From a virus (taxonomy: Duplodnaviria > Caudoviricetes), in the IMG/VR virus record IMGVR_UViG_3300011868_000001, positions 64,001-128,000 of that record: a stretch of 64,000 nucleotides of DNA; one strand, given 5' to 3'. This document shows positions 5,025 to 35,089 of this stretch, one piece after another. The first letter of the stretch is position 1; every line of letters starts with the position of its first letter. The notes beneath the pieces are model-generated. The model saw nothing but the letters and a program-made list of their open reading frames with translations. It did no database searches and was not told the DNA's origin. Both the position numbers and the translations under genes were made by a program.

Positions 5025-5751
5025 CGAGTTTCCCTGTGTCATGTGTGGATGAAATGGGGTTAGAAGAAAGAGGTGGTGCCATGTGACGCTTGAACGCATT
5101 GATACCAAAATCGGGATTGGAGATGATCTTGACCTCAGTTACCAGTACAGCGATCTCATCGACATGCAATGAGATATCGGCCTGAAGGGCCAGTCGAAGC
5201 CGTTCGATGTCGTTATCATCGATGAGGGTGTGACGATGATCCGATAGCACGGATAACCGAAGCATACCCAGCAGTTCTCCTTGTAAGTCAATCATACTGG
5301 CCATCGCAATGAACGGACTATCGATGCCGGCCATTACTGTCAGCAAGTGATTCTGGTGGTTGAACACCGTAAACGAGTTGGACTCATAACGGTGAAGGAG
5401 TTTAGCTTCCCAGAACGACTCTGGGTTGAGCTTGAAGCGATATTCATCCATCAAGCGAGCGGCCGGACGGCGCATGGAACCGAAGTGAATTCTCACCTCG
5501 TTACCGATGTGCAATAAGCGTTTCTCTGTCAGGTACTGAATAAAGCCGGGCAAGGCTTCTTCAGTAAAGATATCGCGCGAGGATCGATTAACGCTTTCAC
5601 AAAAGGTGGCCATCTCATCACTGAGATCAATGTCTGAAAGGGCCACCACAGTGACGTGACGTTTCTTTTCGGGGATGGACTCGTCGTATGTAAAGGTAAG
5701 TATTTCTCCTGCCCGGACCTTTATCCTCCCCAGCGTATGATGCTCATACAT
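4906..5751 (-). CDS. hypothetical protein (281 aa)
   Basis: Long ORF with GAGG SD and a TACATTAT motif upstream. Confidence 0.75.
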   Translation of the reverse strand: MYEHHTLGRIKVRAGEILTFTYDESIPEKKRHVTVVALSDIDLSDEMATFCESVNRSSRDIFTEEALPGFIQYLTEKRLLHIGNEVRIHFGSMRRPAARLMDEYRFKLNPESFWEAKLLHRYESNSFTVFNHQNHLLTVMAGIDSPFIAMASMIDLQGELLGMLRLSVLSDHRHTLIDDNDIERLRLALQADISLHVDEIAVLVTEVKIISNPDFGINAFKRHMAPPLSSNPISSTHDTGKLDEHVHAISEAPPDHAQSRSEQPRGADEPQWDQAGSAATA

Positions 5752-5782
5752 GGCTGTGGACCTCAGGTTGTGGTTCAGTTCT

Positions 5783-5790
5783 ATAATGTA
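5783..5790 (-). promoter_or_regulatory. putative early (virion-RNAP) promoter TACATTAT
   Basis: One of 8 copies located about 20-50 nt upstream of minus-strand starts; resembles the phiKZ early consensus TATATTAC. Confidence 0.6.
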
Positions 5791-5799
5791 GCGTTGAAA

Positions 5800-7167
5800 T
5801 TAACTCTGTTCGTCTAAAAAGGCTTGATAGCCAGGGGCTAGACGATCGACCATAACCACAACTTCCGTGGTGGTCTGATGAGCTTTCTGATGAAGCCCGG
5901 TACCGGCCAGAGCCGAATACGCATGGGCATGGACCACTACACCATTGACAAACGCAGGTTCCCCATTGACGATAAACCCCACTTCGCATTGGAGCCCTGG
6001 GATGATCAGATCAGGATTGCTGTTCTCCCAGTTCATGACGAAATAGGCGCCATTTCGTTCGGCCAGACGACTGGCTTCATGAAACGCATTGGACCGAGTC
6101 AGGTTATCAGAAACCCTGGACATGCTGGTGCCTTTGCGTTGGATTGCCTCGTACTCATTTGCATTGTTAGTTCTTTTTGCCACGGCTTTGTTACCAGAGA
6201 CTTCGAAAAATCCCTGCAGTGCCGTGCTGGTGTCGACAAATCGCGTACCGTTGCCTTCATTGAGCAAACGGGTTTCCGAGGGGTCTAACCGGTTTACACC
6301 GCCGGTGATCAGGGCCACAAAATGCTTGTCCTGAATCCGGTAGGTGTGTTCGATCCCGCGGTAACGCTTAGAGGGTGCCAGAATAAACAATGCCGTGCGT
6401 TCAGCCTCATCATAGCGCTTGTAGTTATACAGCGGCCAGATGTACCACATGTCCTTTTGCAGGTAGCAACCAATGCCGGTGCTGTAGATGCCCCCGTACT
6501 GAGTCTGGAGCTTATCGGCGACCTGTACCAGCGGGATGCCATGAGGCAGGACCGTGTTACTGCGTTTGGTTTGGTTACTCGGCTCAACCGCGTTGATGCC
6601 ACGGATGGCATTTTCCTGATCGATATCCATGTTCTGCATGGACTGGGTCAACAGAGACAACAGGATGTCATACGGTCGACTGTCACGGAATACACCGCCG
6701 ACGATTTCCGTCCGTATTTGATCAAACGCTTCCTCTTGAAGCTGAACCTGAATGATGCGAATGCCAGTCAGGTCGGATGCATATTCGCTGGATGTCTCAG
6801 GACTGTCCGCCAGCATACCGGTTTCAGACTCTAACGGCAGCCGCGCGAGGTAGGTCTGTTCCAGTACACTGTCGGGCACCTCCACACCTGAGTGTGCGAG
6901 GGTCCGGCGAGTGAGGGTGAGTTTGAGATTTTCCTTGAACGGCAAGACCCGGTGAAGATACTGACCCCATTGGACGGCAACCTTGAGCAGGACCTCATCC
7001 GTAATCGCCTTGCGGTAATCACGGATGACGTCACGACTGATCACGGTCAAAGCGGGAATCTCTTCCCGCTCCGTGACAAACACAGCGTCGTAGGCGTAAT
7101 ACGAATCGACGCCTTCACGCTGGATCAGTTCAAGTTCCGCACCAAGGGTTGTTTGGGAGAATTCCAT
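5800..7167 (-). CDS. virion structural protein, baseplate hub-like (phiKZ gp101-like)
   Basis: 455 aa; last gene of the structural cluster; synteny and size. Confidence 0.6.
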   Translation of the reverse strand: MEFSQTTLGAELELIQREGVDSYYAYDAVFVTEREEIPALTVISRDVIRDYRKAITDEVLLKVAVQWGQYLHRVLPFKENLKLTLTRRTLAHSGVEVPDSVLEQTYLARLPLESETGMLADSPETSSEYASDLTGIRIIQVQLQEEAFDQIRTEIVGGVFRDSRPYDILLSLLTQSMQNMDIDQENAIRGINAVEPSNQTKRSNTVLPHGIPLVQVADKLQTQYGGIYSTGIGCYLQKDMWYIWPLYNYKRYDEAERTALFILAPSKRYRGIEHTYRIQDKHFVALITGGVNRLDPSETRLLNEGNGTRFVDTSTALQGFFEVSGNKAVAKRTNNANEYEAIQRKGTSMSRVSDNLTRSNAFHEASRLAERNGAYFVMNWENSNPDLIIPGLQCEVGFIVNGEPAFVNGVVVHAHAYSALAGTGLHQKAHQTTTEVVVMVDRLAPGYQAFLDEQS

Positions 7168-7181
7168 ACAAGCCCTTTGAT

Positions 7182-7757
7182 TTAGTGTTTCCTGTTACGC
7201 TCAGCGAGCAGACGTTCAATCCGATCCATGAGCGGTGAGGTTTCTTGCACATCCACACCCACTGCCGATGTGTTGAACAGCTCTTGAGCCCCCATCAGGT
7301 TACCGAACAGGCTGGAGACCCGACGCAGTTCAGGGACGTCATTGATATCTGGCTTGAAGCCGACGACCTGGTCCTTGATGGTCTGAGCAAAGTCGGACAT
7401 CAGGTACAGGGAATCGAGGGGTGCGTCTTTGACGTTCGGATCGTTGTTGACGTAATCCGCCCAAAATCCCAAGTGCGCGGTGATCACCTCGTAAATGGTA
7501 ACGAGGTCTTCGCGGGCGTTCTGGAACTTGATGTCCGCCCCTTGCTCGTAGAGCTTGAGAATATCGGCAATGGTGCCACCAATATTGACGTACTCGGCCA
7601 TGTAACGCTGGTTGAGCTCTTTCGAACCTGTGTGCAGATGACCAACTTTCTCGTTGTATTCTTTCGAATAGCGATAGTAGCCTGGGATCGCATAGAGGTA
7701 CGTGGTGTGGAAAATATGTCGACGCACTTCTGCGGGGTCATCGTATTTCCGACTCAT
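7182..7757 (-). CDS. conserved phiKZ-like protein (gp100-like, 191 aa)
   Basis: ATGA overlap with the upstream stop; synteny. Confidence 0.65.
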   Translation of the reverse strand: MSRKYDDPAEVRRHIFHTTYLYAIPGYYRYSKEYNEKVGHLHTGSKELNQRYMAEYVNIGGTIADILKLYEQGADIKFQNAREDLVTIYEVITAHLGFWADYVNNDPNVKDAPLDSLYLMSDFAQTIKDQVVGFKPDINDVPELRRVSSLFGNLMGAQELFNTSAVGVDVQETSPLMDRIERLLAERNRKH

Positions 7758-9151
7758 TTGATTCTCCGACGGTACACCCGAAGCAGGGTGAAGAGAATAG
7801 GGAAGTAATAAAACCGTTCGACGTTGTCCCAGCGTGGGGCATGTGTGCACAGCAAGTCCAGCATGCGGATGTCGATTGCCTCACCCTTCAATGCTGCAAG
7901 GGTCAGGGTCTCAAGCTTGCTGAGTTTGGTCTGGGCAGTGTGCTCGTAGAACGCCTGACTCAGGACGTAGTAGTCGTCGACAGTCACTCGTTTGATCTGC
8001 GGCGCACGCTCGGGGGCGATCGACTCGTAGACTTCGAACGTTGGGTCGAGTTCTAAGGTCGGTTTGAATAGGCGGTTGAGTTCGCGGAATCTGGCACAGC
8101 CACGTACCAGGTCTTCCAGCTCCTGATCGACAAACCCACTGTAACCGGCATCGACATTGGTGGGCGTCAGGTCCGGGTAGACCACGGCTTCCACACCAGA
8201 GTAGTAGATGCTGTTAAGACTCGGACGGCGATTGAAGAACTTACCGACGTCAACCAAGCCTGCCTGGTGCACACTCATGGACAACAGCGCATGGTCCATG
8301 GTCTCCAGACAGTTCCACAGGGTGAACTCGTACATGGTCTGGTCGCCCTGCACGTTCAGCTCCACCATGTGCCTTAGCAACGGATGATCGTCAGTGGTCA
8401 GGATGGTTTTCACATACCGTACCAAGAACGGGTCATACGTAACCCGAGGCTGGTTCGGCACCAGCAGCGTCTTGCGTTCGCGGCTGAAGAAATCGTGAAA
8501 GTACAGCTGGATCAGACGGGCGTAGTGCTCGGCCATGTTGTTGACGAGCTGGGTGTGCTCTTCACTGAGCAGCGGGGTGTTGCCCGTGTCAAGGAAGTTC
8601 TTGTGGAACACCACCGTTTCAACGGTCTTGGATACCAGCTCGTTGCGTACCGACTCACTGGACAGCTTGATCAGGCTGTACTCGATTTCGTAAACCGCCG
8701 ACATGTAGTGCGACAGCTTGTTCGAAGAGGTCACATGGAACATGCCCTCACGACCATCGCCGATGTCAGCAAGAAAGACATCGCCTTCCTTGGGAATCAG
8801 AATACCGTAGACATTGGCAGAGCCTTTAAGGCTCATGTCTTTGGTGGTGCTGTCTTGGGACGATTGCAACGGACTGGTGACTTTAAGCTCAAAGCCTTTG
8901 ATCAGCTTGTATTGCTGATAGACCGGGTGCAGGTCCGATTCAAAGGGTCTGGCGTCGTCGTCACGGCCTTTGACCAGGGAGAAGAAATCCACATCCCATG
9001 ACTGACCGGCGATGTAGGTAGTCAGTTGATCAAAACGGACTTCCTTGGTGTCAACGCTGGCGCCGACATACGCCTTAGGTTGGATTTTGACCGGATCGTT
9101 CTCTGGCGGTTTGACCACAGTGTCGATGTTCTGAATCGTTGGAACGGGCAT
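7754..9151 (-). CDS. virion structural protein (phiKZ gp99-like)
   Basis: 465 aa; PKEGDVFLADIGDGREGMF motif; synteny. Confidence 0.65.
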   Translation of the reverse strand: MPVPTIQNIDTVVKPPENDPVKIQPKAYVGASVDTKEVRFDQLTTYIAGQSWDVDFFSLVKGRDDDARPFESDLHPVYQQYKLIKGFELKVTSPLQSSQDSTTKDMSLKGSANVYGILIPKEGDVFLADIGDGREGMFHVTSSNKLSHYMSAVYEIEYSLIKLSSESVRNELVSKTVETVVFHKNFLDTGNTPLLSEEHTQLVNNMAEHYARLIQLYFHDFFSRERKTLLVPNQPRVTYDPFLVRYVKTILTTDDHPLLRHMVELNVQGDQTMYEFTLWNCLETMDHALLSMSVHQAGLVDVGKFFNRRPSLNSIYYSGVEAVVYPDLTPTNVDAGYSGFVDQELEDLVRGCARFRELNRLFKPTLELDPTFEVYESIAPERAPQIKRVTVDDYYVLSQAFYEHTAQTKLSKLETLTLAALKGEAIDIRMLDLLCTHAPRWDNVERFYYFPILFTLLRVYRRRIK

Positions 9152-32621: not shown

Positions 32622-33047
32622 TCAGCGCACCATTTCCAGACGTTCGGCCAACAGATCACTCAGTGAGCGCATGAGTGATTCTTGCTCACGCAGCTTGAGG
32701 ATGTGTGGACTGACGAGTTCGACCGAATCGAGGTAGGCGATGAGCTTGGACAGGCGATCATCCAGCTGAGCCTTTTCAGCGACCAGACGCTGGACCCAAT
32801 CTGGGCAATCGGACACATCACCCATGGGCAGGTAGGCGCCTTCAAATACAGCACTGGGCGACCAGCTGATGTAACCATCGTGCTTGGGGTGGTTTGGCTG
32901 CCCCCCATCGGTGTACTCAATCAGATAGCCGGTATCTTCCGGATTTTCGTCAGCCGGAATATCCCACCCGCGGTAGACATTGTAGTCACCGCGGGTCATG
33001 GGCGTTGCCTTGATGATCTTGGTACCGACATAGTGCTGCATTGACAT
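32622..33047 (-). CDS. two-domain phage protein (YxGTK...GYISWSP domain plus crAss001_48-like helical domain), candidate anti-defence nucleotide sponge
   Basis: YVGTKIIKATPMTRGDYNVYRGW...GYLIEY...GYISWSPSAVFEGAY and WVQRLVAEKAQLDDRLSKL...QESLM...LAERL. Confidence 0.6.
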   Translation of the reverse strand: MSMQHYVGTKIIKATPMTRGDYNVYRGWDIPADENPEDTGYLIEYTDGGQPNHPKHDGYISWSPSAVFEGAYLPMGDVSDCPDWVQRLVAEKAQLDDRLSKLIAYLDSVELVSPHILKLREQESLMRSLSDLLAERLEMVR

Positions 33048-33787: not shown

Positions 33788-33862
33788 GGTCTCAGTGACC
33801 AGGACTCGAACCTGGGACTTGGCCTACGGCCTTTAGTTCTAACCGACTGAACTACCACTGAG
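33788..33862 (-). tRNA. tRNA-like gene with shortened anticodon arm (pseudo-tRNA or tRNA mimic; GUA in a 3-nt loop)
   Basis: TCAGTGG/TCACTGA acceptor, TA-GTTC-AGTCGGTTA-GAAC D-arm, CCAGG-TTCGAGT-CCTGG T-arm; anticodon arm only GGCC-GTA-GGCC. Confidence 0.7.
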
Positions 33863-33905: not shown

Positions 33906-33935
33906 CATAGATTACATCCCGCTGTACTTTTTTAC
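33906..33935 (-). promoter_or_regulatory. putative middle/late promoter for the RNA array
   Basis: GTAAAAAAGTACAGC...TATG; similar A-tract motifs lie upstream of other minus-strand operons. Confidence 0.45.
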
Positions 33936-33938
33936 GAT

Positions 33939-34397
33939 TTACTTGTCTTCACCGTCTTCGATATAGCGTTCATAGTACTCGACCAGCTTGCGGTAGGTGT
34001 AACGATCAGTCACGCCTTGCTTGATACACGCCAGAGATGAGTCACGACGAACGCCCTGCTCGAAGAGTAGGCTCTCCAAGGTATCGACAACGGTGTATGA
34101 GCGAATCCGTCCTTCACCACAGTTGACGTAGATAAGCCCCTTGTCCTTGTGCTCGTTGACAAAGTCAAAGATCTTCTTGGCCAGTTCAGGCCGCATGCAG
34201 TGGTCGCGCTCATCCTCGCTCATGTGGTCGCCAGGGAAGAAGTCAATGCGCAGCAGTGGGCGATTGTCTTTGTTCGGGATGGCGGCACCGGGACTGTACT
34301 TATCGCTGATGCTGATCAAAGGCGCATCGATCGGAATCTGACCGACTTTCTTCTTACTGATGTTGGTAAGGCGTAGGGTGGTGTTGGGCGTTATCAT
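33939..34397 (-). CDS. Cx5R (PTP/dual-specificity-like) phosphatase
   Basis: IYVNCGEGRIRS P-loop; LISISD; start re-called at MITPN (ATGA overlap). Confidence 0.8.
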   Translation of the reverse strand: MITPNTTLRLTNISKKKVGQIPIDAPLISISDKYSPGAAIPNKDNRPLLRIDFFPGDHMSEDERDHCMRPELAKKIFDFVNEHKDKGLIYVNCGEGRIRSYTVVDTLESLLFEQGVRRDSSLACIKQGVTDRYTYRKLVEYYERYIEDGEDK

Positions 34398-34555
34398 GCC
34401 GAGGCCTTCTTGGTGAGTTGGTTGTTGGTGCGCTGCTGACGAATCTTGGCGCATTTGACATGGTTATAACGCTTATCGCAACGACGGTGACCACAGACAT
34501 CGCACAGTGCGGTCATAGGGGCGCCGAAACCATTGCTGTTAAATCCACGGGCCAT
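34394..34555 (-). CDS. 53-aa Zn-finger-like microprotein
   Basis: MARGFNSNGFGAPMTALCDVCGHRRCDKRYNHVKCAKIRQQ...; AAGGAG SD; ATGA-coupled to the phosphatase; missed by the ORF track. Confidence 0.7.
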   Translation of the reverse strand: MARGFNSNGFGAPMTALCDVCGHRRCDKRYNHVKCAKIRQQRTNNQLTKKASA

Positions 34556-34570
34556 GCTGGACAGTTCTCC

Positions 34571-35023
34571 TTACTGGGTGGGTGCGCCTGTGGCGCAAAT
34601 GTAGTTGGCTTCAACAAAAGGTAACATCGACAAGTAGACGTACCTGATGTCGTCTTCAAAACTCAGACCGCCGTTACCGCAGCCCATGGGCGGGATGGCG
34701 ATGGTCTTGAATTTATCCGGGTGTCGATTGACCAGGTTTACCAGCTTGTTGAAGTTATGGATCACCAAGTCACGCGGTGACGGGTTGCGCCAGTTCAATT
34801 TGGTGGGCACTAAGAGGTACTTTACCCCTTCGTGCTGATACAGAATGAACTGGGTCGGATCAAGGATGGGGTACATCTTCTTGTAATGTTTGTACAAACC
34901 AGGGATGGTGTCTCGAGCCGTTTTAGCAATCCCGGCGCCCATGGCACCCACCAAATTGATGGTTATGATTACCGTGTCCGCCTCGACACTGAACAAGTCC
35001 TGCTGAACAATCTCCAGGGCCAT
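34571..35023 (-). CDS. macrodomain protein (DarG/Poa1p-like ADP-ribose hydrolase)
   Basis: DLFSVEADTVIITINLVGAMGAGIA, VPTKLNWRNPS, IAIPPMGCGNGGL. Confidence 0.9.
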   Translation of the reverse strand: MALEIVQQDLFSVEADTVIITINLVGAMGAGIAKTARDTIPGLYKHYKKMYPILDPTQFILYQHEGVKYLLVPTKLNWRNPSPRDLVIHNFNKLVNLVNRHPDKFKTIAIPPMGCGNGGLSFEDDIRYVYLSMLPFVEANYICATGAPTQ

Positions 35024-35059
35024 ACTGGGTATCCTTACACGGATTGCTAAGACATGTAG

Positions 35060-35067
35060 ATAATGTA
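35060..35067 (-). promoter_or_regulatory. putative early promoter TACATTAT
   Basis: About 37 nt upstream of the macrodomain start. Confidence 0.6.
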
Positions 35068-35089
35068 CTGTTTCCGGCAAATCGAATAG

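Follow-up and report, generated by a model that had tools for sequence, protein, structure and literature searches.

A tRNA-Asn-derived, apparently non-decoding tRNA mimic in a small-RNA array of a nucleus-forming phage

Introduction

Phage tRNAs are currently explained mainly as nuclease-proof substitutes for host tRNAs. RNA C and RNA D of phage T4 are encoded in the tRNA region and are partly tRNA-like, and mascRNA, menRNA and the organellar t-elements are tRNA-like units with a reduced anticodon arm, which are excised from longer RNAs by tRNA-processing enzymes. The two T4 RNAs (species 1 and 2) are small and stable, and no function is known for them (PMC9697503). As to the nuclease-resistant phage tRNAs, they achieve rescue by taking over decoding from the cleaved host tRNA (PMC12445682; PMC11464382).

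Here, we describe a phage element that keeps the body of a tRNA and apparently does not decode. No family is available for it in Rfam beyond the generic tRNA family. The literature that we searched, to which most subscription journals do not belong, yielded no description of this element family and no case of a defence system being blocked by a phage tRNA mimic that does not decode.

The tRNA-like element and its fold

The window, i.e. the whole stretch of 64,000 nucleotides that was analysed, belongs to a phage record of 253,747 bases that is 96% complete. The genome encodes homologues of chimallin (E 1.6e-18) and of tubulin (PhuZ), which point to a nucleus-forming jumbo phage. Among cultured phages, Pseudomonas phage pPa_SNUABM_DT01 is the nearest relative (67% for a protein encoded nearby), and the host is likely Pseudomonas.

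The tRNA-like element is real and lies on the minus strand, as do all features of the window described below. Its predicted mature form, from C-1/U1 to a C-rich tail, spans 33862-33787, and the Rfam tRNA match, the fold, the covarying orthologues and the isotype comparison lead us to annotate it as a putative non-decoding tRNA-like RNA derived from tRNA-Asn. The acceptor stem has 7 bp (33861-33855 paired with 33798-33792), the 5' strand starting at U1. The D arm (33852-33836) consists of a 4-bp stem and a 9-nt loop with G15, G18 and G19. The anticodon arm is replaced (33835-33821) by a UAAA linker (33835-33832) and a 4-bp hairpin with a 3-nt loop, GGCC-GUA-GGCC (33831-33821). The variable loop (G46, U47, C48) and the T arm occupy 33820-33799; a 3' linker, AAGUC (33820-33816), separates the replacement hairpin from the T arm proper (33815-33799), where T54-A58 and the partners of G18/G19 are intact. 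The last segment (33798-33783) holds the 3' acceptor strand, the discriminator G73 at 33791, an ACCC tail and a linker of four U.

The element has the 7-bp acceptor, the 4-bp D stem, the 5-bp T stem and the conserved elbow bases of canonical tRNAs, and it lacks their 5-bp anticodon stem, 7-nt loop and U33. By sequence, all elbow and core positions are present (U8, A9, A14, G15-C48, G18, G19, C13-G22-G46 and T54-A58). The Rfam tRNA score is 41.2 bits (gathering threshold 29), with the anticodon arm left unaligned. ARAGORN neither called the element as a tRNA nor gave it an isotype, and lowering the threshold returned only noise. The predicted fold includes the 4-bp hairpin (z -3.2, none of 200 shuffles being equally good), and the spacing between the D and T stems is 20 nt, as compared to 23 nt in related tRNA-Asn genes. 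An earlier note on this DNA had described intact acceptor, D and T arms together with a 4-bp hairpin closed by a 3-nt loop, and the sequence, the Rfam score and the fold bear this out.

Orthologues and evidence for selection

Orthologous loci were located via the upstream anchor gene, which is tyrosine/dual-specificity phosphatase-like (33939-34454). At the same locus, the short hairpin is common to the relatives L027, L002 and L026/L042 (three distinct variants), and two further sequencing runs span the element with no indel and keep the short arm. The RNA-labelled runs X14 and X20 yielded a few short contigs, none of which overlaps the element, a result that speaks neither for nor against its expression. 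Because MAFFT put the hairpin in the wrong register, we aligned the sequences by hand before counting base pairs. None of the 20 pairs is lost in any variant, and 10 of the 21 variable columns lie in stems. Both sides of a pair have changed in four instances, two in the acceptor stem, one in the T stem and one in the replacement hairpin; L026 has a hairpin pair changed from G-C to U-A and a T-stem pair from A-U to U-A. The UAAA linker is invariant, and the D arm is identical except for one loop pyrimidine. When an equal number of stem changes was drawn at random, all pairs survived in 24, 15 and 1233 of 400,000 trials, statistics that are limited by the three distinct variants and do not separate selection on structure from selection on sequence. 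Between variants, the element is 80-86% identical, as compared to 43-59% at fourfold-degenerate sites of the flanking genes.

The hairpin loop is not conserved (GUA in the window; UGCG, of 4 nt, in L002 and L026). This free loop argues that no codon is under selection, and no conserved anticodon fits the Asn-type body. A canonical arm with a 5-bp stem and a 7-nt loop forms at best two to three of its five pairs in any variant (two of five in the window). These data support the view that the element does not decode, as the earlier note had proposed from the window alone. They also favour its suggestion of a selected mimic over random decay, since the short hairpin persists in the orthologues through compensatory substitutions; the comparison with orthologues that it called for, in which a normal tRNA in relatives or a private lesion would have told against the mimic, showed the short arm in L027, L002, L026/L042 and the two runs.

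The acceptor end is more variable. The note had also singled out an extra C-G pair extending the acceptor stem. This eighth pair joins C(-1) to G73, the discriminator base of tRNA-Asn, and is possible in the window, L027 and L026. It is broken in L002, where the first pair is U1-G72 and the discriminator A73, so that it is not a conserved feature; U1-A72 and G73 are both retained in the window and L026. CCA is encoded in no variant, and R-C-C directly follows the 7- or 8-bp stem in each of them.

Pattern scans based on the exact D arm found no further copies in metagenome or bacterial genome collections, and scans of viral sequences returned only the contig of L002, besides unrelated or chance matches. 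The family is therefore small or under-sampled.

Origin from tRNA-Asn

Over the acceptor and T arm, the element shares 27-30 of 32 positions with tRNA-Asn, and 22-23 of 32 with the next isotype; the tRNA-Asn panel was partly fetched by an L026-based pattern, and is thus biased to likeness, with the genes of DT01, L018, L019 and LPKP23 fetched independently. The T arm is identical to that of Pseudomonas tRNA-Asn at 17 of 17 positions. For a family model built from L002 and L026, the best outside match among ordinary tRNAs was Pseudomonas tRNA-Asn (53 bits). The D arm and the lower hairpin resemble tRNA-Asp, and we considered an Asn/Asp chimera. We dropped this idea on finding that the tRNA-Asn of Klebsiella phage LPKP23 shares both the D arm and the C31-G39 pair with the element, so that a single tRNA-Asn ancestor suffices. 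We infer that the hairpin consists of the lower anticodon stem, now closed over the former loop, and that A-rich linkers have taken the place of the upper pairs.

The small-RNA array and its distribution

The element is the second unit of a protein-free array of 860 nt made of stem-closed modules (region fold z -4.5). The first unit is a 5' leader hairpin (33906-33870). The fold and the unit maps of relatives place seven more stem-closed units after the mimic (33782-33072), at 33782-33723, 33713-33584, 33574-33492, 33482-33388, 33378-33300, 33289-33168 and 33157-33072. A CC lies within 5 nt of the closing stem in 36 of the 47 distinct array units, as compared to 27 of 113 shuffled (24%) and 13 of 76 coding (17%) controls; these 47 units are homologous rather than independent, and the count is not a formal test. 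It is worth noting that RNase T halts at a CC following a duplex, the 3' end of 4.5S RNA being a duplex followed by ACCC (PMC3439924), and that RNase P base-pairs with R73-C74-C75 (PMC11143913). From these preferences and the CC-tailed units, we propose that the tail of the mimic follows a stable-RNA format common to the whole array.

The array, which was absent from all cultured phage records searched, is probably a larger finding than the single mimic. Among its nine CC-tailed units (33906-33072), many closing stems have 11-15 bp, similar in length to the acceptor plus T helix of a tRNA. The 130-nt unit at 33713-33584 comprises an acceptor-like stem, a variable-arm-like hairpin, a second T arm and a long inner domain; it is nearly identical in L003, L004-8, L010, L011, L027 and L046, and matches tRNA-Sec weakly (20 bits). 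In the unit at 33482-33388, which most relatives retain, a CANGGA motif is followed by an unpaired stretch rich in C that by eye resembles an anti-Shine-Dalgarno sequence or an RsmA site.

Modules are gained, lost and duplicated between relatives. The mimic is absent from the arrays of L004, L010 and L046, in which unit 1 is joined straight to unit 3, and the arrays of L020 and L025 have no T-arm unit at all. In a baseplate tree, L003 and L010 fall together with the window (100/100) but do not carry the unit, which is present in the more distant L002 and L026. In L003, the slot of the mimic is taken by an ORF of 172 amino acids (5635-6153; phrog_2586, function unannotated), in which visual inspection suggests motifs like a P-loop and a Walker B. 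Judged from these genomes, the mimic is an optional cassette that has been repeatedly lost or exchanged. Apart from the mimic, the genome gives no Rfam tRNA match. Of the relatives, two complete ones lack tRNAs altogether, a partial one has this element alone, and more distant ones retain a real tRNA-Asn in the same region.

Promoter and neighbouring genes

A phage-polymerase promoter of the phiKZ middle type (AAanTTAC + TATG; consensus in PMC4666361) is predicted at 33906-33933, with +1 at 33906. The motif and its spacing of 14-15 nt are conserved in 11 of the 11 relatives examined; at this spacing the motif occurs once genome-wide, so that it is supported by its conservation and its similarity to phiKZ rather than by enrichment. 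The minus strand showed neither a sigma-70 promoter nor an intrinsic terminator. The downstream gene (32622-33047) ends in a C-terminal Sequestin domain (PF21825), of a family that sponges the Thoeris signal (bioRxiv 10.1101/2025.07.12.664507). Its N-terminal domain is 73% like a domain fused to Tad2 elsewhere, and a structure search with the protein gave no match. Two genes upstream, at 34571-35080, lies a macro-domain-like gene (weak PF01661, phrog_335) with a patchy occurrence among relatives. Searches of the genome detected no TROVE protein, CCA-adding enzyme, class II synthetase or RtcB.

Other tRNA-like elements

Several other tRNA-like elements were observed in the course of this work. 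In L018, an outer tRNA-like body (7712-7860; z -3.4) has an anticodon stem leading into an inner, circularly permuted tRNA body whose acceptor is sealed by a tetraloop, and a second tRNA body (7143-7232), not called by ARAGORN, carries a 13-nt loop on its anticodon stem. Phage DT01 has an unannotated T-arm element (L001:9367-9442; Rfam tRNA 23 bits) among further stem-closed modules around real tRNA-Asn and tRNA-Asp genes. Another T-arm element lies downstream of the Sequestin region in L020, L021 and L022 (about 7300-7380) and in L043 (about 14024). In the tRNA-Asn genes of L036, L038, L039 and L041, the D stem and the anticodon arm are set apart by about 30 additional bases. In an unrelated phage (L204:6679-6752, minus strand), an Asn-like tRNA body with a short, irregular anticodon arm was given no isotype by ARAGORN.

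Discussion

We consider it very probable that a tRNA-Asn gene became a non-decoding tRNA-body mimic maintained by selection. Since evolution has preserved the tRNA shape, the element probably acts as a tRNA look-alike. What it would act upon is more tentative, and the role that we put forward, with less than even confidence, is that of a decoy, made of a processed and stable tRNA body, for a host protein reading the elbow or acceptor helix, probably a defence effector. The phage RNA polymerase would transcribe the array from 33906, and host RNase P would cleave the transcript where the mimic begins. The U/A-rich linker would be cut by an endonuclease, and exonuclease trimming would halt at the CC following the stem. 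The product would be a stable, L-shaped RNA of 75 nt with an R-C-C end, perhaps completed by the host CCA enzyme. With an intact elbow and acceptor helix and no readable anticodon, such an RNA would not be consumed by ribosomes, and could serve as a decoy or competitive inhibitor of some host protein recognising the body of tRNAs, the likeliest candidate being a tRNA-directed defence effector.

The patchy distribution of the mimic and its Sequestin neighbour, on the same strand and under the same predicted promoter, are what suggest a decoy aimed at a defence effector; the adjacency, as evidence of an anti-defence role, is guilt by association. That CCA is not encoded and that the discriminator and first pair vary both speak against a decoy, and the missing loop makes the element a poor bait for enzymes reading the anticodon loop. 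A wider proposal, which we regard as rather doubtful, is that of an RNA-only counter-defence factor, namely a tRNA-body decoy inhibiting a tRNA-directed immune effector with no decoding, carried as an interchangeable array cassette and co-transcribed with a Sequestin sponge gene in nucleus-forming phages.

The main rival to a decoy is a processing, or punctuation, signal, a reading to which we give about one chance in several: the tRNA fold would recruit RNase P and 3' trimming to free the leader, the downstream units or the Sequestin message, the RNA itself being a by-product. The retained parts (acceptor plus T helix, elbow and R-C-C) are what RNase P reads (PMC11143913), the anticodon and CCA are lost, and the mimic is second in a polycistronic RNA array. 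However, the same neighbouring units occur with no mimic in L004, L010 and L046, the arrays of L020 and L025 have no T-arm unit, and the invariant UAAA linker and D arm also count against this reading. We find it unlikely that the mimic serves inside the phage, in nucleus formation or host takeover rather than in immunity, by binding a phage RNA-binding protein or by titrating EF-Tu, RNase P or modification enzymes. The chimallin and PhuZ homologues and the middle-type promoter motif would suit such a role, and, by analogy with YrlA (PMC4201824), a stable tRNA body would be a ligand for general tRNA enzymes, but a core function fits badly with absence from most close relatives.

The anticodon, which is a major determinant for AspRS and AsnRS, is gone, and this weighs on a further reading, quite improbable to us, in which the CCA-completed RNA is aminoacylated or bound by the host Asp/Asn pathway (non-discriminating AspRS, GatCAB) and acts off the ribosome as an amino-acid donor or inhibitor. 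The window and L026 do have U1-A72 and G73, the former pair being a GatCAB determinant, but U20A, a GatCAB antideterminant, is also present (PMC1635274), L002 has U1-G72 and A73, and neither a phage class II synthetase nor a CCA enzyme was found in the genome. A decaying tRNA-Asn pseudogene, an assembly error or a private deletion would agree with the loss in many relatives and with the 3' end lacking CCA. The same short arm recurs in independent assemblies and runs, no pair is broken, covariation extends even to the new hairpin and conservation exceeds that of neutral sites. The short arm with covariation across orthologues thus excludes error or private deletion and disfavours decay, and we hold this reading to be very unlikely and largely refuted. 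The least credible reading of all is a nuclease-resistant tRNA still decoding via an abnormal arm, either through GUA, read as Tyr, in the window or through the 6-nt loop C-U-GCG-G of L002/L026. Opening two pairs does give a 7-nt loop with a central GUA, C32-U33-G34 is retained in L002/L026, and OLD-resistant tRNAs have a shorter stem (PMC12445682). Against it, only two to three pairs would be left, U33 is missing in the window, the triplets differ between orthologues on an Asn-type body and ARAGORN gives no isotype. Resistance to anticodon nucleases, which the earlier note had offered as an example of what is selected, did not find support: known resistant tRNAs rescue by decoding, so that resistance alone explains nothing here, and the element lacks the anticodon stem-loop that AriB recognises.

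This phage clade has shed all its decoding tRNAs and yet retains a selected tRNA body that apparently does not decode, which indicates that the tRNA shape is useful beyond translation. The 75-nt size of the unit, its known parent tRNA, its three variants and the sister genomes with and without it offer a clean test of decoy versus processing signal. Genes of this type are missed by ARAGORN or left with no isotype.

How the element compares with known systems can be summarized as follows. Relative to tRNA-Asn(GUU) (RF00005; Pseudomonas chromosome, phages pPa_SNUABM_DT01 and LPKP23), it has no 5-bp anticodon stem, 7-nt loop, GUU or encoded CCA. The conserved eighth acceptor pair of the tRNA-His or tRNA-Sec type is not seen, C(-1)-G73 being absent from L002, and the tRNA-Sec model did not match the mimic unit. 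A tmRNA is ruled out by the D stem, by A3-U70 or C3-G70 instead of G3-U70, and by the lack of a tmRNA call. The YrlA RNAs (RF02553; PMC4201824) are, like the element, non-decoding with a D arm, a T arm and tRNA tertiary contacts. However, YrlA is a circular permutant whose acceptor ends in a closed loop, has a GNCGAAN0-1G motif and lies beside Ro60; the element shares none of these, having the normal arm order, no Rsr-binding motif and an Rfam match to tRNA only, and Ro60 (TROVE, PF05731) gave 0 matches in the 96% complete record, from which a very divergent homologue could escape. The 3' end of E. coli 4.5S RNA (PMC3439924) has the duplex-then-ACCC format also seen in the window and L002, in an RNA that is unrelated to the element in sequence, fold and function.

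The T4 RNAs C and D are longer, whereas the element keeps the full cloverleaf order with one shortened arm, in a genome with no real tRNAs. The mascRNA, menRNA and t-elements are eukaryotic, whereas the element can be absent from its array and shows clear descent from a single tRNA isotype. The T5 tRNA-Lys active against PARIS and the phage tRNA-Thr active against OLD (PMC11464382, PMC12445682, PMC10264068) resemble the element in their altered anticodon arm and plausible counter-defence setting, but they retain an anticodon and rescue by decoding, which the element presumably cannot do. Together, these comparisons and the sequence evidence indicate that the element is a selected, non-decoding derivative of tRNA-Asn, a tRNA mimic rather than a canonical tRNA, a YrlA RNA, a tmRNA or a rescue tRNA.
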